A stretch of 58,093 nt of DNA, filler included, from Bipalium vagum (Eukaryota): the NCBI GenBank assembly GCA_037834085.1. It is 3 parts of 3 records of this genome, joined end to end, with 100 filler letters (N's around TTAATTAATTAA, not from the genome) between each part and the next. Parts side by side here need not be neighbours in the genome. Positions count along the whole stretch, not along the records: positions 18,309 to 41,876 come from JBBMKC010207709.1; 2 more parts are not named here. One strand, given 5' to 3'. A program made the translations under genes and the position numbers. This document shows, one piece after another, positions 12,192-55,635 of the stretch (its first letter is position 1; the number at the start of each line of letters is the position of its first letter). Below the pieces are notes generated by a model that was not told the origin of the DNA, did no database searches, and worked only from the letters and a program-made list of their open reading frames with translations.

Positions 12192-15100
12192 ATGGATAGT
12201 GATGTTGACAATGATCCACCAGTTCGTCTGAAATCCTTGAAAAAGTCTTTCAACAGTGAAACCAAATCTCCTTTACTATCAACTTCCCAACAGAGCACTC
12301 GCAGATCCCAGAATACTTCATCACCTGTTTCAACTTACTCTTTTAAGTCATCCAAAGATAAAATCGATGTTGCAGAAATTCGACGAATTTTAACAAAATT
12401 GAAAAGTGAAATTGAGCATGAAAAGAAAAAAAACCAAGAATTATTAAATAAAAATGTTATGGAATTAGAAAAGCAAAAAGAAAATTTAGAAAAGCAACAT
12501 AGTAATATAATTTTTAAACTCAACAAAACTTGGCAAAGCAAAGTAGATGATTTGTTGAAGAAAAATAATGCTCATATAAGTGAAATAAATAAATTGAAGC
12601 AAAAGGTTTCCGAGTTATCAAGTATGGATTTCTTTTCTAAATATTTTACAATAAATTCATATATTCTCGGCAGGTAGATCGGGAACAGATTTTCAGATTT
12701 CTAGCATTGAAAATTTGATAACAAAACTTATGACATTTTTGAACGAGGAAATACACAGTTTCAACAATACTGAAGGAATTATGGCAATTATTAACGACTT
12801 AGTTAGAAATATCTATTTTCTATATGTTTTTAAGTTTCATGTTTTCTTAATATTTTAAAATAATTGATTAGTATTTTCGATATCCCTTTATTACTAGGGA
12901 CTTACCCAAAGTTTTGCACATAAATTATTAATTTATAGAATTCATAGCTGTTAATAAAACCAAGATAGCAGTTGAACAGCTCATGTTTATTTAGTTTGTA
13001 TTATGCATTTCGATATTGATTCATAATGTGACCACAAATATTATTTCTGTCATACCATCTTAATGATAGCAAATTTTTCTAACAAAAGATGGCGTACGAT
13101 CATTCAATTTCTCACAAAGAAGACTTATCACATACCGCGGCTACTGATTGACTGAAGACACATTGCGAATGTACATTGTCTTCCAGATCTGCATGAGCAG
13201 ATTGATGATGCGCTTTGCGTGCGGAAGGGAATCACTTGAAGGTGACCCTTAAGATGGTGCATCAGTCATAGCAAGATCAGAAGAATCTTTTGCTCATGTG
13301 CGTTCCATATGGAATTAAAACCGACGACAAACTTTTGTTGAAAATGAGGAACATAATAGTTATTCTAGGCGTACTTTTCACTAAATTATCCAGTGTAATT
13401 TGGAATAGGAAAATTGGTGCCTAAACTGCTGATGGAGAAACAGAAGATTTCCAGGGTGTAAGATTCAGAAATGGTATTGGGTATATTGGAAGAAATAGGA
13501 GATCTGTTTTGATCATGGGTTATTATCGTTGATGAGACTCCTTTGCCATGTTACATGTCTTCAACCAAGTGCTAATGCCTTAAATGGGTGGCATCGTGTT
13601 AAAAACCAATGGTTCATGCAACGTCACCCATATCAAGTGACTGTATTGTTGGACTTCAAAAGATTTGTTTATGTGAAGTTCTGTCCTCTAAATCATACGA
13701 TGAAAGCTGCCTATTACAGGGATTTGCATTACACTGTTCAAAACAAATTACAAGAAAGAATTCTGGAAAACCGTGCTGCCGACCTTTTTTTGATCCAAGA
13801 CAATTCCAGAGTTCACATCGAAAACATTTCCGTGAACTAATTGGCAATTGCTTCCACGCCTACTGTGTTCGCTAGACATTGTATTTAATGATTACTCCTC
13901 ATTTAAATCATCCCAGATTTTCCTTTCACGAGTGAACGCGAGATGAAGGTAACTGTGAAGAAGTAATTCTTTTCTGAATGGTTTAATTAATGAGATAAAG
14001 AAACTGGAAGAATAAACTACTTTGGATGGTGATTATATGGAACTGTTTCATATGTAGACATCCTTTGCCTGTTGTTGCCTAATAAATAAATACAGAACTG
14101 TTTGCTAAACCTTTGGTATGCTCCTGGTATATTTGTGAAAATAATTGAATATTAACAAGTTTATTTATTAAAAAATTTAAAGAGAAATAAAATCTACAAA
14201 GTGCTTAAGTAAAGCTGCTATTTTGTTGTATTTCTCCAATGAATAAAAAATTAAAATTTATAAAACGATTATGAAATTATCTTATATTTTATTCACATTA
14301 AGTGTTTATAATTTCTAATGTAATGAACCCAATTTAAAATCATTTCTCAAGTCTTTTCCTATTATTTTTTGTTTGAATAAATATTAATTAATAAATTTTC
14401 TTTTATAAACATAATCATGTTTAGTCAAGTTTCTAATTGTTTATCTATCAATAAAAGACATTTATCAATATTACTTTTGTAATAAATTACGAGATTTATT
14501 TTTCCTATGATTCCCTCCACAAACAACTGAAAACTATATCATATTGACATTTATTTTAGTCCTTCACTTTCCAATATATAATTGAATTATTAAATGATTT
14601 TAAAGTATAATAAAATCTTATTGATAAGTTGGTTTCGTCAAAATCTCAATCTTATTTTTTCAAATTTCAGAATCAATATCTGAACGACAGAACATTAAGA
14701 CCAGTAATATTTTTCAATTTTTCATTGTTTTAACTAATCAATACTCAGAATAATGAACAGGAGAAAGGGGATATAAAAAGCATCAAGATGAAAAGTCAAA
14801 ATGCCGATCTGATAAATATTGTGAAAATTTTGGATCGAAAATTTAAAACTAGTCAAAATGAAGTTATAGTAATTTTTATTTAATTATTAATATTTATAAT
14901 ACTTATCACAATTATATTTTAAAATAATTCTTTATTTGTTTAATTAAGTGAGCCTAGCTAAATTAATAAACGGCTAATTAATAAACAGAGTATCTAGATA
15001 ATTTAATTTTAAAATAGAATTGTGATTTTATTAAAAATTGAATCATGTATTTTTTTTTACCAAAATTGACATGTTATTTTTACCAAATTGTTATTTCTTG

Positions 15101-18208: not shown

Positions 18209-18308
18209 NNNNNNNNNNNNNNNNNNNNNNNNNNNNNNNNNNNNNNNNNNNNTTAATTAATTAANNNNNNNNNNNNNNNNNNNNNNNNNNNNNNNNNNNN
18301 NNNNNNNN
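18209..18308. other. Artificial contig-joining spacer
   Basis: N44-TTAATTAATTAA-N44, which puts stops in all six frames. Confidence 0.97.
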
Positions 18309-18422: not shown

Positions 18423-18888
18423 TTAATATAATTCGTAATCTACAATTATTTCGATATTTGCAGACTGGCCCAAAACATATGTATTTGTATGTGCTTCTTT
18501 ATTTATGTCCACAGAAGTTAGAAAGCGGTTATTCTTACTTAACTCTAAACCTTCTGCAATTTCTTCTTCAGTACGTTTCTTTGGTCGTTTGCAATTTATT
18601 CTTTTTGTAGAAAGTGGGTTTTTATGCAGTCCTGATCTTTCAAGAAACTTTTTTATTGTATTTATTGAAATTTCAAGAACCCCTGAAATTTTGATATTTG
18701 AAAAATTGGCATAGGTATGTAAATCATAAATTTGGTCATTTTGAAAATCATTTTGGTCTTTGTCCCATGCCATACAACTATAAAATAAACATGATGAGAT
18801 CATTAAAAAAATTATTAAAAGCATAACAATTTTGTCCACTTACAGATATTGAATTTCTAATTTGGGTACTGTTTATTGGCCAGTACTG
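18423..18888 (-). mobile_element. Tc1-like 5' fragment (TIR plus HTH)
   Basis: TA-CAGTACTGGCCAATAAA TIR at 18888. The ORF from MAWDKD has HTH-like SNIKISGVLEISINTIKKFL and KRPKKRT (GRPR-like). No DDE domain. Confidence 0.7.
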
Positions 18889-20489: not shown

Positions 20490-21225
20490 AAATATTTGAT
20501 AAAAAAATATTCAACTATTCAAATAAATAAAGACTTGGTAGAAAATTTGAATGATGATTTTACAATGGTACATAAATGAGCTATAGAATTTAGAAAGGGT
20601 CGTACAAACCTGGAAGATGGCCCAAAACTTTCTAGTATTCCGGAAATCGTTCAAAATATACATGAAGCGGTTCTCTAAGATCATCGATTGAAGTTATCAA
20701 ATATAAATAACAGGATGGACATATCAACTGAAAGAATGAACTTTATTTTGCATAATGAATTAGACATGAAAAAGTTAATAACAAGATGGGCGTCGCGTTT
20801 GCTTGCAGTTGAACAAGACAAGTAAGAATGAACCTTTCTCCAGTGTGTTTGGCACGTTATCAGAAGAATAAAAATGGTTTTTTCATGCCATAGGATGATC
20901 GATTATCTCCAAAAACCTGAAACAATCAATGGAGAATATTATTTAAAACTGTTGGATAAATTGGACATAGCCGGATTAAAGAAAAAGAAAATCATTTTTA
21001 TCAAGATAATGCACGTTCACACGTATTACTACAATGGTAAAATTCGTAAAATTTCGCTATTACTGACTTTCACCTGTTTTTCAAAGTTGAAAATTTTTCT
21101 GGGTGGAAAGAGCTTTCCAACAACAAAAGAGATTTATAAAGGGATAGATTATTATTTTTAGAAATCTTGAAGGAAACCACTTTTGAAAGGGCATAATGGC
21201 CTTAGAATATTTTTACAAAAGTTAA
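20490..21225 (+). mobile_element. Decayed, internally deleted mariner transposase
   Basis: EFRKGRTNLED..DHRLKL..ILHNELDMKKLITRWASRLL, MIDYLQKPETINGEYYLKLL and HQDNARSH. Confidence 0.8.
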
Positions 21226-23221: not shown

Positions 23222-26200
23222 ATGACTGCTAAATGTGAAATTGGATTGAATATTGAAACGAAAAGGTAGATAATTATTTTATTTCATGATTTACACAAAA
23301 CTAATTAATATAGGAATTCCAGGGTGCATCAGTTAAGGGATTTATTTCAAATGGGAACTCCGCGACCAGCAGAAGAACTTGAAGGTCTTGAAATAAATAA
23401 CAAAACTGATCATACAAAATGTGATACTTCCAATATAATAGAGATACCACAAGAGGTTGGGGTTTCATCAAAATCTAATGACACGTAAGGAGATTTTCAG
23501 ACATCAAAGTGAATTTTAAATGATAAATTAAGAAATTTGTTAGTCAGTAACATTCCTCTCAAATGTGATATTTTATCGGAGAGTAATACTCCGGTAGTTG
23601 AAATTAGACCAAAAACACCAGAGCTTTTCGTAGGATCACATAACAGTCTCAACAGTGTTAGTCTGAATTATTCACGTTTCTTTTATTAAATATTTTAAAT
23701 GATATAATATAGTTAATATAAAAATCAAAAATTTTAAAATACTTTCTAAATCAATTATCATTTTGTTTCTCATGAAATTTTTTTAATCATTTTGTAATTA
23801 TAATGGTTCAGAGATATCTTTCAGCACATTTTTTTAACGAGCTTCCCTTTGATTTGCATTACATGTGGAAAAATTTAATAACCATTGTGATATAATAAAT
23901 TAAATAATGATAATTCAATGAACTGAATAATTTTTCGGATTCTATTGGTCTGTTAAAAGTATTTGTATGAAAATGATGCAACTGACCTTGTTAATGACTT
24001 CTGGTTGGAATTTTTTTTCCTTTAAATTTAATTATTCTTATTTTTTCATTTCATAAAATTATTTGTAATAAAATTGTTGGAATTCTTATGAAAAAGGAAA
24101 TTCAAATCTGTTTCTGTATAATATTTAAATCTATCAGTTTTTATGTGAAAATGATTGCAAAAATGTCAATTTAATTTATCTTTCACTGCCCAACAAGGTC
24201 TGTTAAAATTGTTAGTGATGACCATAATTAAACATTTAATAAAAGTAATCTTATTTGGATATTTTTGTTTTAATATATCACTTATTCCTCATTGTTGATA
24301 ATTTTCAATTCAAATCTGAAATTATTTGTTTTCCCTTTTGATAATGAATCTATTGCTATATTAATAATCGCATTGGAGACTTATTTCGTCCTGTCATATA
24401 CTTGCAACCGGAAAGAAGCAATAAGCGTATCATTTATGTTTGTTCTAAATGTATTTTAAAATTAATTAATCTTTCCACTTAATTAAAAAAAGTTATTTTT
24501 TTATCTGTAATGCATTTCTGAAAGAAAAGATTTTTTAGAATGAGTTAATTTTATTTTTACAATTTTGACTATTTAATAAAGAATAAAATGATTCATAAAT
24601 ACTATAACAATATCTTATCATTTTTGTATTCAACTCATTAATCTGATTATATTCAATTTTATATTACCGCGCTTATTAATTTAAAATTTCTTTTAAAGGA
24701 ATTGAGTTTTAACAAAAGATTTTAAACCTGAATTTTTTCTGGATAAGTTTGAACAATATTTATCAATAAAGATCATTAGTGAAATTTTCTTTAATTTGAT
24801 TTTTTATTTATCGTATTGAATGATTTAGCATTTTAATTTTTCAATAATCTCAGAAATATGATATATCTCAAATTTATTATATATAATAATTTCGTTTATT
24901 TCTGTTCATTTTATCTTCTATAAATGTACATTCGTGAAAATAAGATACAGATTTCGCGTCAATACCATTCCTTAGCGTTTAAAAATCTTACCAAACGGTT
25001 ATATCATTCAAATTATTGAAATTCGTTCATCGTTGAAAATGTACATAGAACATAAAGGGTTATAATTAAATTTCTCAAGATCCGAATTTCATACTGGGGG
25101 TGGTAAAAATGCAACTGTTTATGAATATCTTGTTTTGAATCTGTTTAAACCTCCTTGATATTTGTATCAAACACACTAATAATTTTTTGGAAAACATTTC
25201 CGATTTTGATACATAGTATGTTTTACTGGATTTTAAAATATATCCACTTTTTATTATCAGTCACTTAGTAAATGAAACAATCACCATAAGGTATTTCAAG
25301 TAGGTTTTAATTTAAGTGTAAGATCTTCCGGAGAATGATTAATCTAAAATTTCAGTGTCACATTTGAAATTTTTGACCCAGATCACACCTTTTTTATTTT
25401 GCATATTTTTTGAACATTTCAGTTTAATGGAGTTATTATTTACAGTACTGTTTTAAGAATTCGATTTTTTCTAAGCTGACAAAATTTTTTTTAACTTATA
25501 TTTTGATAAGGGATAAGGTAAACTTTAAAATTAAATAAAATATTATATTGTATTTTTATTAAATAATTTGATTTTATAAATGAATTTGAAAATGTTAAGT
25601 AAATATTTAGGCTAATATTTTTAGTATAAATGTGTAATAAAAATTCACATTCCCTCAGTGGATAAAAATGTTCAGTTTTACTGATATTTTGTTGTTTTTA
25701 TTCATTTAAAACAGATTTTTTATTATCATAATTTATTAAATTAATCATTTCTTTTATAAAATAAATTAAAAATTAGATTAAATATATTTTTTAAAAAATA
25801 ATAGGAAAACTCTGGTTTAGACACTTTTCAGAGAACTAATGAGAAATAAGATAGAATTAAAATGTATTCATGATTTATTTTCTATCAAATTAAAATCTTT
25901 AAACAAAATATTTATTTTAAATTTAATACTTAATACAATAATAATCTTATACAGGCTGGCCACTAAAAGACTAATCTATTTAAAATTGAATATAATAATG
26001 ATTTTTTAAAAATTAGATAGATAATATTAAGCATCCTTTGGAGATTTAAATGAGTATATATGATAGTCAACACCGAGTAAAACTAATATTTATTCTATTC
26101 GAATGATAAGTCTAGTATTTTAACACAAAAAGATATCGGACATATTTTAATGTAAAAATCTCCTATCACAAACATGATTCGGAATCTAATATTGGATCAG

Positions 26201-29200
26201 TCGCAGATCTTCCCGGAAGAGGTCCTTATCGGGCTGTGTATAATGACGCAGCCGTGCAATGTGTACATCAGAATATACTTCAAGATCCATATGCATCTTC
26301 TCATCGTCGCTCGTCTCAGGTAGACATATCGAGAACATTACTTCAGAAAATTTTGCAGTTGGATTAAAAACTGTTCCCTACAAAATTGAAATGGTCCAAT
26401 TTTTGAAAACCCGGGATACCCATCATAGCAAAGATGACAATCAATTTTTGAATAATTTGATAATGAGTAATGAAGCTCATTTCTGTCAGAATGGTTGTAT
26501 CAAAAACCAAAACAATAAATTCTGGGGTAAATCAAATCCTAGAGAATTATACCATCATAAATTGCAGTAAAAAATGAGCTGTTTGGTGCGGCGTTATGGC
26601 TGACAGAGTTATCAGTTCATATTTATTTGAAAATAAGGAAGGTCATATTGAAAAAATTAACGGTTCTCGGTATAGGACAATGCTTGAAATGTTTTTACGC
26701 CCAGCTTTCCAAGATAATCAACATGTATGGTTTCAACAGGATGGAGCTACTTTGCGTACTGCTAAAGCAACATTGAAAATTCTAAGAGAAATTTTCGGTA
26801 AACGAATATTTTCTAAAAATTCAGAATTTAATTGGCCTCCGCGATCACCTGATTTTTCGGCTCCGGATTTCTTTTTTTAAGGATACCTGAAAGACAGGGT
26901 TTACATAAACAAACATAAGACCATTTACGATAACTTTCGAGCTGAAATCCAAAATTTGAGACCTGAAACCTTACGAACTACATGGAAAATGCACTGAAGA
27001 GAGCTTATATTTGTGTGCAGAAAAATGGTTGCCATTTGACTGGTGTGGTTTTCCATTCATAATTTTGAAATAACTTCTATTTGTAAATAAAATAATTTAA
27101 AAATAAAAATACACGTGTTTGTAAAAGTTATTTTTGTTTTACATCGTTCAGTCTTTTAGTGGCCACCCTATATTAATGATTTAAAAATTTCCTAAAAAAA
27201 TTATTCATGTGCCGATGAACGGTTGTTTTATTTCGCTAAAATCTGAGTGATTCTGATGAAAATTATTTTTTATAAGTAATGTGAGTACAACTTTTTAAAT
27301 GATTTTTGATTTCATTTTCTATTTTTCTACTTAACTTTCTGATTGGAAAAGTTTTATCTCGAAAAATTTCTGTTTTATAAGTGATCTGATTAAATGAAAT
27401 TATAAAAACATAATTCTTTAAAATAGTATTTTCAAAATATTATGTTCAAAATAATTAGAATAACGATATCATTCTGGAAATTAGAGTAATAATTAAAATA
27501 TAACACCATTTTGGTTGGTTTTGGATAATTTAAGAAATCGAAATTCGGCAAATTTCAACTTTTATGTAAGTGTCAATTGTTTTCGATAAAACAGTGAATC
27601 AATGTTTCCTTATAATAAATATTTTTCATTTCAAATTTAACAGTTTCATTTTAGTCAAGAAATTCCGATATCGAAATATCTCCTGCTTCTCCAGGTTCTC
27701 GTCGGAGTAATTATGAGTTTGATATTTCCGTTATATGTCCTATTGTTCCTTTTGTTGGGAATCAACCTCCAAAAATAAGATCATTAGGCAAGGAGTTTGA
27801 GGCTCGTCGCTTATCTAGAACTAATCAGTAAAATCTTAATTTTTGCTTAGTTTAAAAAGTATAATATATCAATTTGCAGAGATGACTTTAATTTAGGCGT
27901 TGATCTATCGACAACGACTTCTACAAATGATTTGGACAAATCTAAATCAAATTCTCCTAATAACAAATTACAACCTATGAAAAATCTTCTTGATGATCAA
28001 AATACAGATAAAAAACAGTCTGCCAAAGATTCTTCGACTGACACCGTTCGTCCTTTCATAAATTTGAAAACAAAATCACCAAACAAAATCAGAAAAACGA
28101 AAGACATGGGTAGCGATTCTGATTCAGATGTTGACAAGATGAAAGAAGTTCCAAATAATATTCATAACTTAAAAGGAAAAGAGGATTTTTCGTACAATGA
28201 CATAATAGAAAATTATAAAGACGAATTATTTAAAATAAATCAATTATATTCTCCAACAGGTATTATTAATAAATTTCGTCCTAAACTTTAATTTACTATT
28301 ATTTTTCTTGTTTGGTTACATATTTATTATTGTTATATTTAATTATTTATTATAATTACAAATTATTACATTTATATTAAGTAATATATTTTTTACCTAC
28401 TACAACATATTATTACTACTACTATTAATAATAAAATATTGAAGAATCGTTATAATATTATGAATATGAACATATTTAGTTAATTTTGTAAAAAAATATC
28501 GTTCATTTAAAAAAATATTTTAAAGTTCAGAAATTCAATGTATTCCTAATATTAAAATCAAATCTAGAAAAAAGATTATTATTTTAAGAAGATAAATGTC
28601 TTTAAAACCTAATTTTTCTATTCTACTAAGAGGTTTTCAAAGTTTTCATGATTAATCATTCATTATTTGCATATGATTACTCTCTTGACTGGACTCTTCA
28701 CCATTTTTTTCAATTATTCAGTTTTAATTATTTATGTTTTGTATTTGTGACCTTTGAGTAATCAAACATTGATGATGCGCTTGTTCTATTTTAAGAATGT
28801 ATTGTTTTAGGACTTTGGGTGTTCCGAGTTCTGCAAGTGTTGAAAAATATCTTTACAAATCTCTGGTCAGATTTCTAATTAGCGGAAATTTACTGAGTTA
28901 TTTTATCTTTTATAAATTAATCAAGGTCCATTTTAATCAAATTTAAATTGATCAGAATTAAAAAGAAGTTCTTTGTTAGATTTTTAAAAAAATTCATTTG
29001 ATTTGATTCAAACCTTAGAACAAATAAATTGGATTTTCAATCAATGATTACAATTTTAAACTTTAAAAATTTTAATTACATCAATAATTTTTAAATATTC
29101 TCTCTTTTAAAATGTGATAAATGATGTATTTTTTTAAAACATGATTGCTATTTTTCATGTGATTTAATATATATGATTTTTATAATTATTGTAACAAAAT

Positions 29201-32200
29201 TGTTATTTTTAAAATATTTTGTATATAAATTCACCAAATTTATTTACCTAGATATTAAAATTGGATCTGAAGATGTTCAAAAGTAAGATTTATATTATTT
29301 CTCCAAAACTATTATTTAAAGAGAAAATCTGAATCTCTATTTTTATCTATATATAACTTTTTGATAAGACTATTTTTTGATGATTTTTTTACCAATTGTC
29401 TTCATTAACACTTTTTATTGATCTGTAAATGAAAATCTAATGTTTACTTCTTATTTTTAACCGGTTTTGTATCTCTTTTTTAATGCACAGTGGACTTCGG
29501 TTAATACGATGTTGTCTGGATTTCCAAAAATCATCGTGATAAGCGATATGTCGTATTAACTGAAGTGTAATTATTTCATTTACTTGATATGAATAAGAAT
29601 AAATGAAACAATCGATTTTCAAACATCCGCAATATCTAGTTATACTTTAAAAAGTCCGTTATTAATAGTTGTTTAGTACTTTGTTGTTTATTATTAAATC
29701 TTCAATTATATATTTTTATTACATCTTCAATTATATAAATTAGTTCCATTTTCTATACTAAGATTGTTTTTTTGAAGGTATTGGCGAACACGCTTGACAG
29801 AGGCTAACACGTCTTTGGCACCTATATACATTACAAAGGGTCCGATTAATTATATCGAAATATCCACATAATCATATTAAGCGATATCGTATTAACTGAC
29901 TTCCACTACTACGTATTAGATATAAAACATGTCGTTTATAAATTCTTATATTAATACAAATAGTTCAGGTATTAATGTTAATCTCAAACTTTAAGCATCA
30001 TATTGAAAACTGATTCCCTTAAATCACTATTTTCATTTTCATTTAGCATTCATAAATAAAATCAATTTTTAATATACCACTTGATATTTTATCTTCTGTT
30101 TTCTAGTATATTCATTCAATTGAAAGAGAGAAATACTCTCAATATTTTCTTTAAAAAATTTTATGACAAATTTTCATTGATCTTAGTTATTATTATAATT
30201 TTTTTTCTTTGAGGATTAAAATTGGTATTTTTATCTTGCAAAAATTGGATATATTTTCGATATATTTATTAATAATATTCTTATTTTATTATAATGTAAC
30301 AGACCATTTGAATTTTTAACTTTTATGTTTTATTTGAATTTTTTAAAAAATAAATATTTAAAATTCAATAAAATTAATAAATACTTCAATTTAAATATTA
30401 ATATAATATAATATAACATAATATAATAAATTTAATAATTGTATTTTTAAAATGAATAATCCACAGTTATTAAACTTAAAAATAAGAACGTAATATATCA
30501 ATTTGAAATCCTTTGATGTTAATAAAAATTTTATTTAATATATTTAATTTGAATTTGTTTTTATTTTGTTTCTAATTTAATATTTTAATGAGACGATTTA
30601 TTTACTCTTTCAAATTCTCACTAGTTAATAAAATAAACAAACTACCCATCAAATTTTAATTTGACACTTATGGCTTCGATATTGTGATTTCTTACAAAAT
30701 AGATTTTGGCTATTTTTATCGTATTTTATAGAACTAATTTCTGTATCAAAACTAAAAATCATTTGATATTATATTTCTTATACTAAATCTTTAATTCTCA
30801 GTATTTTTCTGTTTTTTGTAGTATTTTTTATAAAGAAATTTAAAATTATTTTAAACCTGTTAAATAATTATTTTTATTATTTAATAGAGAAAAATAGATA
30901 GAAGGCTTCGAAATTGTCGCTTTCATTTTTCTAAATTTAGTAATAGTGGGTGGTACTATTTTTGTTATTTTTTCCTCTTTCAATTTCTGTACATAAACAA
31001 ATGGGTTTATAAAAGGAAAGTATGTGATGGATTCATTATTTCTAAATGTTAAAGATTTAAATTGTATTTTGTTTCCTTATGATTTTTGTATTATGATTTT
31101 ATATTATATCATGAAATGACTTTCTTTTTGAACTCTATTGACCTGTTTTTGTTTATATGACTCAATTTCTCAAGTTTGAGAATCGGTCTTTCATTAATGC
31201 TAGCCAAACTTAATTATAAAATTACGGATTTTTAACTGAGCCAAAAATAAATTACTTTAAATTTAATTATTTCATTTAATCTAACACAATATATTTCTAT
31301 TTTTTAAACACTCTTATTGATTAGGATAATAAAAAATATTACTAATTTTTCTTGCAGGTATGTTTATGTTTTTATATCATATTTATTCATTTTATTTTGA
31401 ATACTATTTTAATTTTAAAATAATTACACAAATGTTAACAGAAAACTCCAAATATTACAATTTTTTATATTTAATTGTCAGAGTAAAAATAAATAAATAT
31501 CCAAGTGCGTAATAATAATTTACTAATAAAAAATTATTTCATGAATATTAATATCAATATTTTAATTATTTCACTAATCTTTAGTGATAAATATGTTTTA
31601 AAGCACAAATTAACGATTTTTTTAGGAAGTAAAATTTGAGAGGATTCCAGTTGAACATGGTGTCTTCAGTTTACCATAGAAAATCACATTTTTGATTTAC
31701 ACCAACATAGGAGGACCACTTTTGAAAATTTTTTTAATTTTTTAGGTCATATTGATATTCAGGGTGACCAATTTTGTTTTGAGTTATTTATTATATAATT
31801 AAAGCGTGTAGTGAAATTTTTTTTTCCACCAACAGCTTTTTTGTATTATAAATTAATCATTATATTAAAATATAGTTTTGTTAAAATATCCTTTTTTTCA
31901 CCAGTGCATCATTACTTGACGTTCAGAACTCTTCTCCATCAATAGAATTCACAAATTATGTAAGAGATAATGCTGATTTTCAAGTTCGATTTTTTTCAAT
32001 AAAGCAAAAATTAAAACTACATTGATTAAATTAAGGATTTTTTTTTGGAGTCTGACAATTTTCAGACTGAAAAAGCAATCAATGCTCAATCTCTTGATCT
32101 AGATTATCGATCAAGCTCTTCAGAAGAATATTCTGACAATGATGAACGTTATGCTCAATCCAAATCTTTAGATGATGAAAATCAAGAAAGTTCAATAATG

Positions 32201-35200
32201 AATTTAGTTACGCATGAACTGATTTGCCCTACCCCTGCAGAGGTTGTTGCAAGTAAACATCATTATTTGATTCACAATTATTAAAAATGTAGCTATTGAT
32301 TTTCATTGATGATATTTCTGGACTTCAAATTCAATTGTCAATTAAAAATTCATTTTTCTATTAAAATATTTACAATTTCATTTGGCTGTATTGAATTTTC
32401 TAGTGAGATTGATTCTTGTTGAATTGTTTGACAGTCGATTAATGGAATATGTATTCATGTGTAAAATTAAGTTAATTTCTCTATCAATTATTCATCATGG
32501 TTCTGTAATTCCACAACTACCTAAACACTGTTACGCTTACTAAATTGATAATTCTAATAAAAATGTATTTATACCACTTCATAAAAATATACAATCAATT
32601 ATCCTTTTCATAATTTTGATGATATCGATATTGTATAAATGAATTAGATTTTTTATGAAAAAATAACTCTAATCAATCAATATTTTTAATGAATAAAATT
32701 GTTTAAATAATATGTATAAAAATCTTATTTTATTGATTATCAATTTATCAATATACTTAACCTGTTCAATAAATGGCAATTGATAATTAAATGTTACTTG
32801 ACTTTTAGAATTTGAGCTTGAGTAGATTTTTTTTTATTTGAAAATGTATTATATATCTGAATAAGTTTAAATAGGAGAATAGAATGCTCAAAGCACAGAA
32901 ATATCTCAAATATTAATTTATATTGTGTTTTTTATTTTTAAAATAATTGACTTTTATAGATATAAAAAGACAAAGTCTAATAGATTTCTAAAATTTTCTG
33001 AAACATTTATACAATATAAGATAAAACATGAATTTAAATAAAAATATTATTTAAATATTTCAGTGAAACATGGGTTTTTTTTTAATATTAACAGTTCTGA
33101 TTTAGAAATGGTGCTAATCGGATCAATAGAACTATAATTGTTTGATTATGTTACCTATATTTTGTAAACTGACGTATGTTCGGAATTTTAGTTTCATTCA
33201 AAGTGGGTTGAACGAACATTCCAGACTTAAAGTATCATTTTGTTTAAAGATTAAAAATTAATGAGGTGTGTTTATAGTATGAATCAATTTTGATATATAA
33301 ACATTTATTTTATTGGTAAATTAATAATAAAATATTTAATATTTTTTATCCTATTATAAGTTTTCCTGACTCTTTAAATTATATTTTATAATAAATGATA
33401 CGAACCTCTCATTTTTGAAATAACTCTTTATTTTAAGATCTATTATAATTAAACTCTTGATGTAATTTATTATATTACTCATGAATCTTATTTTTATTTC
33501 GACTTCTTGATTTTATTAAGAGTACAACAACAAATCTATACTTTTAACGTCCATGTTAAAAATAATTCGTAGTCAGAGTTACTACTGAGCATCGCTTCAA
33601 CTTATTGTCTCTGTTCTTGTACTCCAACATTCTTGGACTTAATTTTTCTTACTTCGTTGACAATCGATTCATTTGTTATATTATGAACAATATAATCATT
33701 TTATCATGTAATTAATTTGATTATTAATTTCTATTAACCTTTGAAATTGTAAGTGACATATGAACTATATATCTTCCATAATACTAACTATTTTCACATC
33801 ATTTTTGAGTATGTGGGTGTGCTACTTAAACCTGGCTACTTTAGAAGTATTGAATATCTTTGTCGAAATAGATATTTTTTTAGAAGGATTAAGGAATTAA
33901 ATTGAAATTATCTGAAATTATCTGATGTTCCTTTTGGTTTTGCATGTTTTCTTGCAACATGAATATGGATTTTTAAATTCTATGTAATTCTGGATGTTCT
34001 TATTTATAAATATTTATGAAAATAAAAATAATTCCATTCATCACTTTCTCCAAAATATTAATATTTGGGCAATTAACGATGTCACTATGTTAACAATTCT
34101 AAAAGATCTTTCGTTTGTAAGAAGATCAAATGAATAAGGTTAACTTATACTACTTCCTGTTTTATTTTGATTTCATTTTACTTTTTCTGATGTTACCATA
34201 AATTATTGGTAGTTTTTTGTATAATTAATTTTATATTCAACTGTTTATTTGATGAAATTAAAATTTTTATTATATTATTATTTTCATTAAATTTCTTTTG
34301 ATTTTTAAATAAATAAATTGATTTGATAAAATCTCTAAATAAAATTAAGGTTTTTTCCATAAATTTCTAAGAAAATTATTTATTTTGTTTTTTGTCAATT
34401 TTATTTGAAGATATATTCTAAAATTTTAATTTCCTTATTAATAAATTATTGTAACACTAATAATTTTTATTTTTATATGATAAATTTTATTTTACAAATA
34501 GTTTTAAATATTTTATAAAGGAAGTTAAATTTTCATTTATAAAGATTATTTTTGATAAATATTAAAAAAATATTTTAATATAAAAACAGATGATGGTCAT
34601 CATTGTATTTGGAATCTTAAGCTTTACGTTACATTGAAAAAATATTTTTTATTTTTCAACGTTTTTTTAATTAATAAAGTTATAATAAGAATTTGTAATG
34701 AAATATTTTATATATTATTTCAGAAAATTCATTTCAGTGGTTTTTAAATTTTTTTGTAAAACTTTAATCGTAAAACTGGTTTTTTTAATTTGATAAAATA
34801 TAGATACAAAAAATTATTCTGAATTTATAATTTTTTATTTTGGTGGTAACTATTGTTTTTTTAATCAATATTTGATAACTATATTTATAAGTACAGTATT
34901 GATTTTAAGTTTAACACACCCTATATAAATATATGGATAGCCAGACCCCTCGGGCCCTTGCAGACCTTCGGGCAGATCGTACACCGAACCTCAACTCCGC
35001 GCGACGTCTCAGACTCGTCTTCGTCTTGAACGCCCATGAATGCTTGCTAAATTAATAGTAGTGAACTCTCCATGAATTGCGTGAAGTTGTGTACCCAGCC
35101 GAAACCGAGTACGTGTTTCAGGTAATTACAGGGTCGATGCCACCCCTGCAACCACCCTATCCCTGGATCGGCTTTTACGCAACTATCAACCAGTGTATCC

Positions 35201-38200
35201 CGCAAACCTAGCCAAATTGGTCCCTATTCAGGTTAACAACTCCACTGCAAGAAGGTTTTGACCATGGGCTGACCCTGGCAGGCCAGTTTTGTCGGAGTCA
35301 AAAAAGAAGAAACCATACGCTCACAATGTTTACTTGATATTGATAATCAAGCTTCATGAATACTCTCAATGAGTTCTTCAACATTGGGAACTGTTTTCCT
35401 TGTCACATTCTGCTTCATTATACTCCATATATTTTCAATACAGTTCAAATCTGGACTTTGAGCAGGCCATAGTACAATACAATCGTCCATATTATGATCA
35501 TGTAACCATTGCTGAACTTTTTTTGATTTATGAACAGGGCTATTATTCATAACAATTTTGAAATCTGGGATTTGGAATAATTCAATAGATGGTATTAAGG
35601 AGTTTTCTAATGCCATAATGAAGTCATAAGCCTTGACATTATAACTGAAGACATGAAGAACACCAGCACCGCTAAAATTCATGGTGCCGAAAACCTCCAC
35701 CTACAGCCTTAATAGCGACAAAATCTGAATTCCATATCTCTGACGACAACCTACGAACAACAAAGCGATGATTTTGAGGAAATAAGGCAAAGGAGCATTC
35801 ATCGGTCCAGATAATTCGATTCCAATCTTCCGATTCCAATCTACTAAAACACTATTGGATTCTAACCCGTCTATTACCAACACGTAACATGGGAACTTTA
35901 TAACTAATCCTAGCTCTAAGTCCGTACTTAACAAAAATTTTGCGGACATGTGATTCTGATATATTAATACTCGATGCTTTCCTCAATTCTGCCGATGTTG
36001 CACGACGATTTTGTCTGCATAAACGATATAAGTATTGTTCATTTCGGAAAGTAAATAGCTTGGGACGCCTAGACCTAGGACGATGTTTGACCATTCTTGT
36101 TTCTTCAAATCGACGGATTGTTTGCAAAACACATGTCCTGGATGTTTTTAAAACTTCGACTATGCGCTTCTTAGTTGTTCCGACACAATGTGGCGTAACA
36201 ATTTGCCACTATAATGAATCGTCTATTGTTTGTTTACCCATATAATATTCTAAATAATAAAATGATATTTTAAATGATTTAACTTAATAATAAAAGATTT
36301 AATTTTAAGTTATAAAATTTAAATTCAAAAAAATAAATCATTAAATGATTAAAATAGCTTATTAAATGAAATATGAAAATGATATAAATTGATATAAATG
36401 GACTACAATTCAGTTTTATATGGGGCGTCTTAAACTTAAAATCATTACTGTATACATAATATAGTAAATGTATTTTTATTAACTATTTTAATTTAAATTT
36501 TTAGTAATTTTATATCAATTTATTATTATTTTTATTTTATTACAATTTGCTGTCAGATTTTATGAGTTAAATTATTAATAAGAAAAACTATTGTTGATAA
36601 CATAAAAATCAAATTAATATATATAGTCAAAAGTATATAGTATAATAATAAGTTGTCTCAAAATATCATAAAATATATATTTAGAAAAGAAAAATTTATT
36701 GAAATTCAAATAACTATGAACAGAAATAAATTTCGTACAATATCTATTTAAATGATTATCTCTTACCTTGACCCACCTCTTATATTTGGATTATTATAAG
36801 AATTGCTCCTAATTTTTATGTCTCATTTTCTCAATCGTTTTCTTCTTCGATAGACATGAAGTCCTCTTCCGTTATGTATTTGCAAAGCCATCACATTTTG
36901 CTTTCGGTCTGGATTATGGTTAATTAGAACCTTGCTTTAATAATTGATCGTGACTTCAAGGAACGTGGCATACCAATTCGGAACTTATAATTAATTAAAT
37001 TCTGGTTATTTCCTGTGTAATATTTGCATTTTCTATTAATTTAAAGATCGTTGTTGGAGAGTGTGTGTACTTCTGTAAAATCAAAAGTTCAACACTTTAA
37101 AACTAATGCATCAATAGATTAGTTTTTTAAGTTCAACCATCTTAAAGCTTAAAATAAATAATTTTTATCTTTCTGTAAAAATTTTAGATTATTGAATATT
37201 AAGGCTAATTCTTGGGACAAGACCTATTATAAGACTATCTGTCTATATATATACCAAGCATTATATTCTTCCGAACATAATAATAAGTTATTATGTTTAT
37301 ATTATTCCCATAAATAAATTTGGTCTAGACTATTTCTATTATGTTAAAAATGATTTGTAAATAGATATATCAATAAGGTTTCATAACAATACTCAATAAT
37401 AATTTACCTTAGTATTTGTGTTAAATTTTCTGAGATAATCTGATCATTTTATTGATTAATATTAATCAGCACAACGTATGAATTTAAGTAAAATAGACAC
37501 TAAATCAAATTATTTAATTTCAGTTGAAGGCGGATGTCACATTTTGGAAGATGGTCATTTTTTCTATGACAAGACCATAGATATGGAAAATGAAATTGAA
37601 CCGGATTTGGAATTTGATACTAAAATTCGTGGTGTAAATGAGGTGGTGAGAACTTATAAAAGGGCTGGAGCAAAAGTACATTTCGTATTGGAGAAAGTTC
37701 GTGTATGTTTACCAATATATTTTTTATTTTTACTTTATATTATTTATCATTTTTTAATATTATCTAAAAAACAGGTTTACAGCACATATCCCGAGAATGA
37801 ATATAATCGAAGAAATGAAGAAATCGATCCTTTATCTGCATCCGCTGAATTCGAAATGGAAAAGCGATTAGAAAAAATGAAAATATTCCCCGTTGATTTA
37901 TATAAAGGTATCATTTACACAATTAAATAAAATTAATAAATTATTTATTTTCCTTTTGTATAACCGTGTACAGTCAGGTGAAAAATGTATACACTCAAAA
38001 TTTTTACTTTTCTCTTTTTACATGATGTTAAATGTTACAAAACAAATATTTATATACAAATTTAATACCATCACTAAATATTTTAATGTAAAACATCGAA
38101 ATTTAATAAATATCTGATTTCATGGATGATTTTTGTTTTAATTTTTGATATCAAATTAGATAGAAGATATTCCCAAATATTTATTATCAGATGCTTACAC

Positions 38201-41876: not shown

Positions 41877-41976
41877 NNNNNNNNNNNNNNNNNNNNNNNN
41901 NNNNNNNNNNNNNNNNNNNNTTAATTAATTAANNNNNNNNNNNNNNNNNNNNNNNNNNNNNNNNNNNNNNNNNNNN
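41877..41976. other. Artificial contig-joining spacer
   Basis: N44-TTAATTAATTAA-N44. Confidence 0.97.
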
Positions 41977-44525: not shown

Positions 44526-45165
44526 TTATTGATGTTTATAAGGAAGACATGCTGCTGCATTAATTAAATTTCGGGTCATATGACGAAAATAGTCGTTACA
44601 ATCATTAGCTGTAACACTTGTTACTGCTTCCAAGATTAAATCCCTAAATCTACCAACAGGTTTATTTCTTATAAGTGATTTGACTTTATTTTTTACTTTT
44701 GAAAATGTAGTTTCAATAAGGTTCAGCATATACGAGTATGGCGAAAGAAATTTGAACTGAAACCCAAATTCTGATGTCATTGCTTCCAGGTCTTTGCGTC
44801 GATGAATAGGTGCATTATCAAGAACAATACAAGCTGCAGTCATGGCTTTCTCATCTCGAAGATATGAACATAATTCCTGTATGTAAGAAACAAATATATC
44901 GCCATTAACGGTGTTGTTATCAATAACTTTAGAATACTGAACACCGCTAATCCCAATACTCGATAGTAAAGAATCGGATCTACCCCTAATTGTTGGAAGT
45001 TTAATATTAGCTCGTTTTCCTTTCTTTGAACGAGCTTGACCACGCTTTAAATGCAAATTGAAATGGGATTCATCAACGAATATTGGTTCTTCGAATCCAT
45101 TGACAAATCTGACATTAAACCAGAGAGCATATTCTTGCCGAAGTTTTAGATATTTTTCTTCATAT
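44526..45165 (-). mobile_element. IS630-like DD34E transposase, catalytic domain open, 5'-truncated
   Basis: IFVDESHF, IVLDNAPIH and FLSPYSYMLNLIE, with 34 residues from D to E. The HTH part is missing. Confidence 0.88.
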
Positions 45166-45303
45166 TTTGAATAATCTAGGTATCGTTGATGAATCCCCTT
45201 TCAATTTGCATTTAAAGCGTGGTCAAGCTCGTTCAAAGAAAGGAAAACGAGCTAATATTAAACTTCCAACAATTAGAGGTAGATCCGTTTCTTTACTATC
45301 GAG
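44959..45303. repeat. 121-bp inverted duplication of transposase sequence
   Basis: 45183-45303 is the reverse complement of 44959-45079 with 3 mismatches; the spacer is about 103 nt. Confidence 0.93.
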
Positions 45304-48300
45304 AGTTAGCATTTCTATATTTTCGAGATTAGATCTCGCAGTAAGCGTCGAACCAAACACTTACACTTTTGAAAGATTGATAACAACCCATTAGTTTCTA
45401 ATTCATATACAAAAGTACTTCAACTGAAATTTTCAGTAATGCACAGCAATACCTACATGTTCGTTTACACAAACTTAACATATTTCTGTCATTTCATGAT
45501 CTAACAGGCATCTTACAAAATGGAGACCTTGATACTTCTGCATATGGAGGACCTACTTTTTAATGAATATATGTTGCTAGGCTCTGCTCCAAGTAGTTAT
45601 TTAGAGTTACCTTTGAAAATTGGACAAATAACGATGTGAATTAGCAATATTAGACTAAATGAAGTAACTAAAACTTACTTCATGTTTTTAAGCCAATAAC
45701 ACAGCTGTAGCAGGGCGGATCCCCGTTATTTGTGCTGTAGTCTCAAGTTATACCGTTTCCAAAAGTTCTTTTCATTACATTTAACAATAAATTCGTTTTC
45801 CGGTTTAAATTCTTAGATGAATTCCAGTCTCGGTAGACAATAATGGTATGACAGGTTTATACAATTCAAAAATGTGCCCTCTCTTATCATTGATGTTTAA
45901 CTAGAAGTTCAACCTTCTACTTTTGAATGACCAGTACTATTGTATTGCAAGAGGTTTCAACTTCGCCGCGGAATAGAAAAGTTCAACTGTACTTTTATCA
46001 TAAATAAAAATCTCTCACATTTACAGCTGGATATTATTTATTATCGTCCTAGTCAAGAGTTCCTTAATCAGATGCTTCCATGTCCACCAAAATCTATTTA
46101 AATGAATTTCCTTATTTATTTAAATCTGAAATTAATGTGTTATCGTTAAAGCTTTTGTTTATTTGAATTGATTTTTGCGTAACTTCGAAATTATTTTTCT
46201 TTTATGATTGGACCATATAACTATTCAAAATTTGCTTTTTCCTACAAAACAAACTATTCGTGTTTTTCCCGTTGGCCCTTTAAAAAGGTCTTACTGCAAT
46301 GACAACGGCCAAGGATACAATCAATGACGTATATACAGAATTTATTATGGTAAACAGTCGACAGTGTTCAACATCAAAATTTTATTTCCATTACAGTTTC
46401 TTTTCAATAGAAATTATATAAGCGCAACACAGAAAAAGAACCCTTCTCACACTGCCGCTATAAAACCTTTGGAATATAATTGTTTCTCCCTCCGCCTCTC
46501 CTTCCCTCTGATTTTTAAGCACATTAAAAAATGTTTTCGTAATAAAAATATTTTCTTTATTTCGGTACCGAGTCCTTCCAATGAGAACCAACCATCCTCA
46601 TTTCACAATCAATAACCGATGAAGCACAACTTAAAATCAAATCCGATCAAGTATGTAAAATCAATAATTATAATGGTCGCCTCAAATAAAAGGGAGAATA
46701 ATCAACAACAAAAAACAAACTGCCACCACCAATGCACCACCACCGCCGCCGTATCTTAAAATTGGGAAAAAATTGTTCGTAAACCAAAATCGATTCCATG
46801 GATGCACAGAAGCACACAATTGGAAACGAAAAAAATCCATAGAATATGTAGATATAGAGAGAGTTACATAAACAATAATAATAGTAATAATCGATAGTAA
46901 TAATATTAATAATTGCACGTTGATAGTATGATTAGAAAAATAGCGAATATTGCTCGACTGAATCTTGTTCATCTGTTAACGTTTCTTTTTACAAGGCCGA
47001 CACCATTTCTGTTTCGCCGCTCAATCTGTCAACTGCTCGCATTTCCTCTGCTCCTGGTCCACAGCACGGACATGGTCAGGACTTTGCGATGATCAAATTA
47101 AAAACTCAAAAGTGTAACTGGTATACAAAGGATAACATGGATTGTTACTAAGAATAGAAACACAACAAAAAATGACAAAAATCAATAATAAAAAAGAAAA
47201 TATTGGTGAGATTTGCTGTGGACATTATCTTTGATTCGAAGCAAACGTGCTCCATATTCCAACAAAAATGCTTTTATCAAATGACTAAGACACACTGACA
47301 CACGCACACGCACACATAAAAGAGAACACATATAAGCTGAAATTTTGATTGATTGAAGACACGTCAATAAGTGAGGGGTCTTGAAATGGAACGGGGAGAG
47401 ATAGGATATAACCAGAGGTGATGGTAAACGTTACACGGTTAACAACCAATGCCTGTCATGAAGAAAGTGAGTCTGACAAACATAAAAACGCACACATACA
47501 AAAAAGAGAACTCTCGAAACTAACCTTCCCTCACCCCTACAGCTACCGCCATCATCACCACCACCAGCACAACGAACAAGACGACGATACAAGGAGAAGG
47601 ACAACCAGGAGATGTTCGAATGAAACATTGAATGAATGAGTGACAATGGGTACGAGACAACAACAAAGAATGAGATTTGGAGAAGTGGAAAAGAAAAAGA
47701 GAAAAGAGAAACATGAAGATTGATGAAACAGGAAAAGGTCAAAAGATGTGATTCTCGTACAGAGCGATCATCAGCATAATTACCGTTCCGATCATAAATC
47801 CGATATTTTGCCATAAAAACAAAATGCTTGGTCGATGGAAATTTTTTTTGCCCATCAGTCGTCGAGTGCTCAGTTCGGGGATCTGTCGGAGAGAAAATAA
47901 TTATCAATTTCCGCTTTTATTTTTTAAAAATAATAATAGAAATAAAATAAAAATAATCGAATCATATCTTTGTCGAGCTATGTACCAATGGACACAAATC
48001 CACGGTGCATCTTCATCTGAGATCGATCATTGAAATTGTGAGATTTTAAAACAGCCTCGATAATAACAGAAAAAATAAAAGAAAAGAAAAATGCTGTTTT
48101 GGTATGACCAGTAATATTATCGGGGTACCAGAGTAAGGATATCGAGATAAGAATAAATTTTACAGTTCAACTGCAATTCAAAATTAATGTGCTAATTAAA
48201 GAAAAGTCCTAACTTTAAAATTGAAGGAAGTAAATAAAAGTTTAAAGGATGTAAAAAGAATTTTTAAAAAGATTGAGGAGCGAGCACTCACAGCAATTAA

Positions 48301-51577: not shown

Positions 51578-51820
51578 NNNNNNNNNNNNNNNNNNNNNNN
51601 NNNNNNNNNNNNNNNNNNNNNNNNNNNNNNNNNNNNNNNNNNNNNNNNNNNNNNNNNNNNNNNNNNNNNNNNNNNNNNNNNNNNNNNNNNNNNNNNNNNN
51701 NNNNNNNNNNNNNNNNNNNNNNNNNNNNNNNNNNNNNNNNNNNNNNNNNNNNNNNNNNNNNNNNNNNNNNNNNNNNNNNNNNNNNNNNNNNNNNNNNNNN
51801 NNNNNNNNNNNNNNNNNNNN
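51578..51820. other. Scaffold gap (243 N)
   Basis: N run without the linker motif. Confidence 0.97.
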
Positions 51821-54459: not shown

Positions 54460-55635
54460 ATGACAAACAAAAACTCGTACTATGCAAGTCTTTATGTTGG
54501 TGATCTTCATCCGGATGTTGATGAAACCGTTCTCCATGATCTCTTTCGACCCTTTGGAGAAATAATATCTATACGAGTTTGTCGCGACATCAAAAGTGGA
54601 AGATCTCTCCGATATGGTTTTGTCAACTTCAGAAATGAGAAAGATGCACAACATGCCATTGAAGAACTCAATCTTCATAAGATTCTTGATGTACCCTGCA
54701 GAATTATGTGGTCAGAAAATGGTCATGGTCTCAGCTCTTCCAGATCCAATAATGCTAACATATTCATCAGTAATCTCGAGTCGTCAATCACGGCTATTCA
54801 GATATATGATACTTTCTCTCATTTCGGTGAAATTATTTCATGCAAGCTCCAAACGGATAAAAATCAAAGGTCCAGAGGTTCTGCTTTCGTACAATACAAG
54901 TACGAAGAGGATGCGTTGAGAGCAATTGAGGTGGTCAATGGGAAAATGATAAAGCGTCAAATTGTGGTTGTTGGAAAGTTCATTCCTCGAACGAAGACAA
55001 ATAAAGACAGCGACGAATTTACAAATTGTTTCATCAAAAACTTTGGAACTGATCTAACTGATGAGAGCTTGAAAGAGTTGTTCGAACCATTTGGTGAAAT
55101 TGTCAGTGCCAAGGTAATGATGAGTGATGAAGGCGTTTCGAAAGGATTCGGATTCGTGTCATTCAAGAACCCGAAGGATGCTGAGGACGCCATCGAGAAG
55201 CTGAATGGGAAATTAATAAATAACAAGAAGATATATGTTGGACGAGCTGTGAAAGCGGTCTCGACAACGAAACAAGTGAAAGAGAAGCCAAGACAAATGA
55301 ATGTTAATACTAATCTCTATGTGAAGAACTTTGATAAAAAGATGACTGATGAAGGACTGAAACAAATGTTCTCCGAGTTTGGAAGTGTTACGAGTGCAAA
55401 GATTATGATTGACGAGAAGGAGAACGAGTCGAAACAATTCGGATTTATATCGTTCTCGACCCATAAAGAAGCTTTGAGAGCGCTGTTAGAAATAAACGGG
55501 AAAATCGTGGATGGAAAACCTCTTTTTGTTAACTTTGCACAACGAAAAGAGGACAGGATCCAATTGCTGTGTCGTCATTTTGAAGGTAGAATGAATCAAA
55601 AGAAGGTGGAAAGACAACATCTTAACCATCTTTAA
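54460..55635 (+). CDS. PABPC: Cytoplasmic poly(A)-binding protein-like: four RRMs, intronless, no linker/MLLE domain
   Basis: RRM1 ASLYVGDLHPDV..IRVCRD..RIMWS; RRM2 NIFISNL..IYDTFSHFGEIISCK; RRM3 EFTNCFIKNFG..SKGFGFVSF; RRM4 NLYVKNFD..KPLFVNFAQRKEDR. The stop follows soon after RRM4, and AATAAA lies near 55729. Confidence 0.93.
   Translation: MTNKNSYYASLYVGDLHPDVDETVLHDLFRPFGEIISIRVCRDIKSGRSLRYGFVNFRNEKDAQHAIEELNLHKILDVPCRIMWSENGHGLSSSRSNNANIFISNLESSITAIQIYDTFSHFGEIISCKLQTDKNQRSRGSAFVQYKYEEDALRAIEVVNGKMIKRQIVVVGKFIPRTKTNKDSDEFTNCFIKNFGTDLTDESLKELFEPFGEIVSAKVMMSDEGVSKGFGFVSFKNPKDAEDAIEKLNGKLINNKKIYVGRAVKAVSTTKQVKEKPRQMNVNTNLYVKNFDKKMTDEGLKQMFSEFGSVTSAKIMIDEKENESKQFGFISFSTHKEALRALLEINGKIVDGKPLFVNFAQRKEDRIQLLCRHFEGRMNQKKVERQHLNHL

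Follow-up and report, generated by a model that had tools for sequence, protein, structure and literature searches.

What is to be made of a DNA transposon which begins and ends as a Tc1-type element should, and which carries between those ends, in place of its own 3' part, the 5' end of some other repeat? The question is posed by positions 34894..36450 of a stretch of 58,093 nucleotides from Bipalium vagum (GenBank assembly GCA_037834085.1), with 'the window' used here to mean that whole stretch. The original prediction viewed this locus as a composite, i.e., of Tc1 plus the start of a ribozyme-headed retrotransposon, and supposed as well that it might be a mobile family, one spreading a ribozyme via cut-and-paste. 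The composite holds up, with related Tc1 copies carrying 144 other bases where the insert lies and with sister copies of the insert sharing its sequence. Most likely, that is, what is seen is a one-off, decayed accident of one element within another and not a new mobile family.

The evidence comes from the window itself and from public sequencing runs, 13 of which match the window, with no RNA runs on record among them. Contigs of four of these runs, designated X1, X2, X3 and X5, were aligned to the window, the other nine being of small share. X1 is the best-matching run, and X2, X3 and X5 represent two organisms other than that of X1. The X1 contig pieces considered were the best 8 of 99 for the 5' region of the insert and the best 32 of 656 for the whole element. 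Letter differences were compared over the best-supported 40 of 143 rows, 36 of them in Tc1, a selection which is biased towards shared differences.

The outer limits of the unit are exactly as had been proposed. On the minus strand, CAGT at 36450 opens it and ACTG at 34894 closes it, each end being flanked by TA (36451..36452 on the 5' side and 34892..34893 on the 3' side), and it possesses both the TA target-site duplication and the terminal inverted repeats (TIRs) by which Tc1/mariner elements are recognized. The 5' TIR (36415..36450, minus strand) is 36 bp long and is complementary to 34894-34929 at 32 of 36 positions. An X1 contig, at depth 22.8, is identical to the window over 36360-37000, crossing from the left flank through the first 91 bases of the element. 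An AT-rich leader follows (36242..36414, minus strand), covered by Tc1 relatives in runs X1, X2 and X3, with GC amounting to 15% over 36242-36450. At the opposite extreme, the Tc1 3' end (34894..34934, minus strand) consists of the 36-bp TIR plus 5 bases, and X5 and X3 differ from the window by 1-2 letters over 34892-34934.

Between the leader and the insert lies a Tc1-type transposase pseudogene (35306..36241, minus strand), the frame of which starts at 36241, is readable up to 35306, and lacks its C-terminus. Both the helix-turn-helix and the DDE portions are recognized by Pfam (HTH_Tnp_Tc3_2, E 1e-6; DDE_3, E 1e-16), though in a broken copy, and the frame matches the Sleeping Beauty transposase SB100X at E 1e-12. 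Spacing from D to E is 36 residues (35436-35547), i.e., DD36E, without insertions or deletions there in the X3 and X5 contigs, whose 20 gap letters fall elsewhere. Five lesions are private to the window copy, without counterpart in other copies: stop codons at codon 11, at 35852-35854 and at 35347-35349, a 14-nt frameshifting loss near 35693, and replacement of the second catalytic D by N (35547). At 35810-35840 there is also a short tandem duplication where other copies have six extra letters, with the frame kept. It had been suggested that the ribozyme would silence the transposase by cutting its mRNA. With the frame stopping at codon 11 and four further lesions beyond that, no translatable transposase is encoded, and such self-silencing therefore is without a target.

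What the transposon has lost can be read from its relatives. Contigs of X2, X3 and X5, that is, of three of the four runs aligned, connect 34934 to 35306 via 144 other letters, and X1 loose ends at 35306 carry the transposase on as SIGRRL. Because these relatives continue natively, 144 Tc1 bases (the end of the transposase plus trailer) have been replaced in the window copy, just as had been said of its C-terminus and 3' untranslated region. The length of an intact Tc1 would be about 1.35 kb. Measured against long contigs, the window copy has 27 differences in 781 letters for X3 and 38 in 825 for X5, and in all 36 of the Tc1 rows listed the majority of X1 depth carries the non-window letter. 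That X1-majority letter is shared at 36 of these rows by X3, at 35 by X2, and at 33 by X5, which is without cover at three. In 22 rows the window has A or T where the others have G or C, with 6 reversed, so that the divergence of the window Tc1, judged by base changes, resembles what would be seen with neutral decay.

Two further observations concern the Tc1 family rather than this copy. Its majority letters are the same in three organisms at 33-36 of the 36 rows listed, a near-identity that could reflect either recent horizontal spread or close kinship. Summed X1 depth at the Tc1 ends (36302-36483 and 34884-34934) reaches 1500-2900 versus 250-740 for the body, and this excess suggests short, internally deleted derivatives. 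Against longer proteins the transposase piece returned no match, and among metagenomes it returned 42 distant loci, none of them DNA-like to the element and the nearest being 32-78% identical over short stretches.

The insert (34935-35305) is 371 nt long and differs from its surroundings in composition, its GC content being 51.5%, whereas the transposase is at 37% and the flanks are at 17-23%. Neither the Tc1 part nor the insert was found in a second copy within the 58-kb window. On the minus strand, the insert starts with six T (35300..35305) which separate Tc1 from a predicted cleavage site and where native Tc1 goes on differently. There follow a predicted ribozyme of the hepatitis delta virus (HDV)-like type (35209..35299) and the structured leader of a dispersed repeat (35038..35208), which has a 14-bp stem and one short upstream frame, and which folds with a z-score of -2.3 (3 of 200 shuffles being as good). 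An ATG at 35037 then opens a 38-codon frame (34921..35037, minus strand) that is acidic at its start and contains a C2H2-like motif (Pfam zf-C2H2, E 0.007, below cut-off). That frame had been put forward as encoding a peptide. Its finger ends after the first His and before the second, however, its last residues are TIR-derived, with the stop codon inside the TIR, and there are two short frames upstream of it, all of which speak against a meaningful product.

That a ribozyme should be present is indicated by hand folding, by a pseudoknot descriptor, and by the letters seen across the repeat family. In the hand fold, P1 (35299-35294/35243-35238) has 6 bp, its first pair being G-U, with a hairpin in J1/2, and P2 (35264-35257/35216-35209) has 8 bp. 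P3 (35256-35254/35246-35244) has 3 bp, with a C-A mismatch in the window copy; L3 (35253-35247) has 7 bases; P1.1 is a single pair, C35251-G35237; and P4 is short, at 3 bp. J4/2 reads C-C-A-A before P2 and includes a putative catalytic C35220. The model thus possesses the nested double pseudoknot of HDV-like ribozymes, i.e., P1, P1.1, P2, P3 and (P4), and would cleave 5' of G35299. Key letters are likewise in place (C35220, A35217, U35253, G35248 and G35299-U35238), their roles following PMC3774820 and, in part, HDV numbering. An alternative P1, starting from 35314 and containing three G-U pairs, was rejected.

The descriptor finds one core in the whole window, both strands included, versus 3 matches at its loosest among 3000 shuffles of the insert, 0 with P2 of at least 7 bp, and 0 places in 130 kb of unrelated DNA, though these shuffle and background figures are flattered by the descriptor having been drawn up after the site was seen. 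Rfam gave 0 matches in the window and 2 chance matches in 34850-35450, and nested folding of the region (z +1.14) is uninformative for a pseudoknot. Sister copies supply independent support for the fold. The window core departs from the family majority at three positions, 35246, 35247 and 35249, where majority letters account for 435, 366 and 456 of 478 X1 depth units. Those majority letters close P3 perfectly, with P3 paired in 435 of the 478 units, and they bring the core to within one base of CCUCCUCGUGG, which is the most conserved part of R2 ribozymes (PMC5035012). Neither these core changes nor the five transposase lesions figured in the original prediction. As the window copy nevertheless retains a full P1, its catalytic C and, in L3, both U and G, and as an active wasp R2 ribozyme contains a P3 mismatch (PMC3774820), this copy may still be cleaving, on the basis of the model, if probably less well.

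Where the repeat ends is of particular relevance to an understanding of its origin. Three X1 contigs of 2.0-3.2 kb (depth 20-25) match the insert to 35296, 35299 and 35303, beyond which each continues for 1.9-3.1 kb with sequence unlike the window; three X1 contigs also end loose at 35299, with agreement of only 0.59. The family boundary consequently falls at 35296-35303. Because X1 flanks differ beyond it, the repeat must be dispersed, with its edge at the predicted cleavage base. It is abundant as well, with summed X1 depth over 34931-35299 of about 1100 versus about 23 for the flank. Several X1 contigs run past about 34931-34966 with sequence unlike the window, and three other X1 copies have internal gaps of 37-166 nt, so that deletions are common in this repeat. 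With sister copies in unrelated flanks, targeting of Tc1 in particular by the retroelement was rejected. The same holds for insertion in 28S ribosomal DNA (rDNA), which defines canonical R2: the window copy is in Tc1, its sisters are in unrelated flanks, and Rfam finds no rRNA match in the window.

The original prediction called the insert part of a retrotransposon. Its being a ribozyme-headed dispersed repeat stands, while retrotransposon status is arrived at indirectly, that is, via the 5'-edge ribozyme, the leader, the N-terminal finger, and the scattered sites, which together suggest a non-LTR retrotransposon (one lacking long terminal repeats) as parent. Possibly the repeat is a non-site-specific R2-like family. 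By their domain layouts, NeSL, HERO and CRE are candidate parents too. The names of these three occur in PMC13580325. Searches from the insert were otherwise unrevealing: an exact 21-mer is absent from the metagenome contigs; a 41-aa frame had no database match; a 35-aa peptide had 14 matches, all to other zinc-finger proteins and 0 of 14 with a reverse transcriptase domain; a search of the ESM Atlas with the finger peptide gave generic C2H2 clusters only; and 13 PDB matches were weak and C2H2 only, with no R2 structure among them.

How, then, might the two halves have been joined? At the 5' junction, the six T likely are non-templated bases, and such bases are frequent at the 5' junctions of full-length Drosophila R2 elements, whose ribozyme cuts at the element edge (PMC3774820). 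Of the six T upstream of G35299, four are matched in one sister copy. Reverse transcription would be expected to leave a boundary at an RNA end, and template switching between DNAs would not. The 3' junction is defined by Tc1 contigs, whose match extends to 34934, and by a single diverged copy of the insert, which matches down to 34931. As these matches overlap at 34931-34934 (minus strand), insert and Tc1 3' end share an ATAT there, which is the overlap that had been noticed near 34930, with a 4-base overlap having a probability of about 1% by chance given local composition. Retrotransposition normally leaves 3' ends. A lone 5' end therefore requires either a later deletion or else internal priming at a break.

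The reading which we prefer, at a probability of about 0.45, is that a resident Tc1 was the insertion site of a full-length non-LTR retroelement, the body of which was lost in a later deletion along with adjoining Tc1 DNA. The Tc1, a DD36E element, occupies a TA. Retroelement RNA, trimmed by the ribozyme at G35299, would then have been copied by reverse transcriptase as far as its end, and the product attached after 35306 with the addition of six T. A deletion between two ATAT sites, probably guided by this 4-base microhomology, would subsequently have fused a zinc-finger codon to the foot of the 3' TIR. Both halves have come to stand several percent off their family majorities, the transposase having five lesions and the ribozyme core being altered at three positions. 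The resulting unit would be single-copy and inert, though excision by the transposase of another copy would be possible in principle. This order of events is preferred because other copies of the repeat show 37-166-base gaps, and because 5'-complete break patches were rare in a survey of human L1 (PMC1920257).

A number of points weigh against that account. The contig which defines the ATAT overlap is its sole basis and has 38 differences in 279 letters, and no intermediate with a full-length insert is seen in the contigs listed. No reverse transcriptase or endonuclease was reached in any parent search, and a non-autonomous repeat may thus have been the parent. Possibly X1 is the source of the window itself; contigs omit rare paths, a filter drops some records, and summed contig depth is not copy number. 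Lastly, a 146-nt X1 contig is identical to 35219-35292, including the rare letter at 35249, while its remaining 72 letters are not found on the Tc1 side among the matches listed (best 8 of 99). That contig might stem from a sister copy, from a donor, or from an allele whose 5' junction is not the same; alternatively, its match to the Tc1 side may fall outside of those best 8. The 72 letters are also compatible with a Tc1 side joined without the 13 bases 35293-35305.

Copy number is the other consideration which any explanation must accommodate. Window letters at 36401 and 36403 have a depth of 22.8 out of 3022, equal to that of the flank-bearing contig, and the window letter at 35249 has a depth of 22.3, in one contig. 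Such single-locus depth of private letters argues against recent copying of the window haplotype. Older sister chimeras, which would lack those letters, are compatible with the depth data. No X1 contig bridges either junction among the matches listed (best 8 of 99, best 32 of 656), and this is given no weight as evidence, since rare paths drop from contigs. X1 depth over 35309-35350 is flat at 304.9, with 34850-34883 lacking cover, and no cover of the insert is found in X2, X3 or X5 beyond contigs which skip it.

The main competitor to insertion followed by deletion is a repair patch made in one step, wherein a double-strand break in Tc1 was bridged by complementary DNA (cDNA) primed at the ATAT inside the trimmed RNA and extended as far as the 5' end of that RNA, while 144 Tc1 bases were lost at the break; the product would be endonuclease-independent, single-copy and inert. 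Tentative though it is, this explanation has the attraction that a single event covers the exact 5' edge together with its six T, and likewise the truncation on the 3' side, the overlap and the loss of target bases, and human L1 insertions of the break-patch kind are 3'-truncated, without target-site duplications, and accompanied by target deletions in 18 of 21 cases (PMC1920257). In that same survey, however, 18 of the 21 also lost at least 3 kb at the 5' end, those 21 were all that were found genome-wide, and later deletions are acknowledged to mimic such structure (PMC1920257). The pathway, furthermore, has been described for L1 and not for this repeat family. The available data do not separate the patch from insertion followed by deletion; of the origins considered, nested insertion with deletion fits best, and the patch is a close rival. 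Decidedly less probable is gap filling at the level of DNA, i.e., a single-copy Pack-TIR, with 371 bases copied at a Tc1 break from a genomic copy of the repeat. The small internal loss, a filler measuring a few hundred bases, and ends of which one shows microhomology and the other extra bases are all as seen with single-copy Pack-TIRs (PMC8277862). A possible donor exists in the 146-nt contig with the same ribozyme haplotype, and another copy matches four of the six T. Yet a DNA template switch would have no reason to start no more than six bases away from where the repeat naturally begins, and the window holds no second copy of the insert, versus 57% of Pack-TIR donors lying within 15 kb (PMC8277862).

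The junctions might instead represent an assembly error or a one-allele state. The window is scaffolded, with 419 N letters in three runs (18209-18308, 41877-41976 and 51578-51820), both halves of the unit are repeats, and the 146-nt contig is unexplained. Against this, X1 contains the left insertion site without a single difference in 641 letters, the Tc1 parts are correctly ordered with TA at both ends, and the joins share 0 and 4 bases, far below an assembler's overlap, such that both look biological; an artefact thus appears quite unlikely. Least probable of all is the mobile, non-autonomous family that had been envisaged, in which intact transposase would have carried copies of the chimera to further TA sites, spreading its ribozyme by cut-and-paste. 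Both TIRs and both TAs are present, lesion-free Tc1 copies exist in X1 and in other runs, and multicopy Pack-TIRs do occur, at 4 of about 285 (PMC8277862). But no second copy of either junction is found among the matches listed, private letters are at single-locus depth, the TIRs mismatch at 4 of 36 positions, and ribozyme core and transposase both are decayed. Insertion of a retroelement, with later deletion, is retained as the preferred reading.

Much of this has been described already, i.e., nested and truncated elements, Pack-TIRs, break patches, and ribozyme-headed retroelements. The nearest described case to the insert is R2NS-1_SMed, a non-site-specific element of the R2D clade from the planarian Schmidtea mediterranea (PMC5035012). 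As with R2-type elements, the repeat has a 5'-edge ribozyme with a P1 of 6 bp, a P2 of more than 5 bp, a small P4 and a core near CCUCCUCGUGG, along with extra 5'-junction bases, a putative CCHH-type finger, present up to its first His, at the start of its frame, and unrelated flanks (PMC5035012, PMC3774820). Unlike R2, only 371 bases are present, with no Myb, reverse transcriptase or endonuclease seen in them, and R2NS-1_SMed is likened by description only. R2 SIDEs similarly retain a ribozyme 5' end while having lost their coding body by non-homologous joining, though they still have a 3' end from R2 or R1 and are mobile as RNA, whereas the Tc1 chimera is without a retroelement 3' end (PMC3414825).

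From the transposon side, the unit resembles animal Pack-TIRs in its small internal loss, its foreign filler of a few hundred bases, and its microhomology at one breakpoint, Pack-TIRs being mostly single-copy as well (PMC8277862). It differs in that the filler is the 5' end of another repeat and begins where the RNA of that repeat does, an indication that the route was via RNA, and in that no donor is in the window. With endonuclease-independent L1 insertions it shares a 3'-truncated piece, no target-site duplication, a target deletion, microhomology and an intronic location (PMC1920257); here, by contrast, the 5' end is intact, the element is not L1, the target is a DNA transposon, and a later deletion would look alike. 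The Tc1 itself resembles DD36E/Incomer elements in its 36-residue D-to-E spacing, TA duplication, short TIRs and possible spread across hosts, but would be, if intact, about 1.35 kb with 36-bp TIRs versus about 1.2 kb and 22-32 bp for Incomer (PMC6875036). Incomer was reported, as of 2019, from vertebrates and arthropods only (PMC6875036), and it is possible that DD36E was reached here by an independent gain of two residues from DD34E. We found no report, within the open-licence literature, of a Tc1/mariner element carrying an HDV-like ribozyme or of a DNA transposon spreading a ribozyme.

The surroundings of the unit are likely those of an intron (32253..37523, plus strand) of a neurabin-like gene, in agreement with what had been predicted. 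PDZ_5 and PDZ exons are recognized downstream by Pfam, from 37524, and a candidate upstream exon, 32066-32252, ends in the phase required by the exon at 37524. As the element is antisense, the host pre-mRNA would not carry the ribozyme strand. A bacterial promoter scan was at chance level and is irrelevant. Elsewhere in the window there is another DDE_3 transposase remnant at 44529-45391, part of which (44959-45303) folds back on itself with 84% self-complementarity and gives the same peptide when either strand is read. Broken pieces of mariner/Tc1-like transposase are visible by eye at 26116-27060, 13499-13872, 18426-18839 and 20832-21158, although Pfam finds no match for 26578-26877 and only weak helix-turn-helix matches for 18426-18839. 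An intronless, four-RRM PABP-like gene without a C-terminal domain lies at 54460-55632, its best relatives being 53-56% identical.

What this composite offers is a clean fossil by which to locate the 5' end of a family that is dispersed, ribozyme-headed and R2-like. Since copies of that family start at the predicted cleavage base, the ribozyme should be easy to test. The chimera itself gains in importance only if it is present at several sites. Were it a mobile family after all, then a cut-and-paste element would be seeding self-cleaving ribozymes in introns, with sense insertions cutting host pre-mRNA. The two parent families are perhaps the better leads, that is, an R2-like element outside of rDNA and a DD36E Tc1 which is nearly the same in three organisms.

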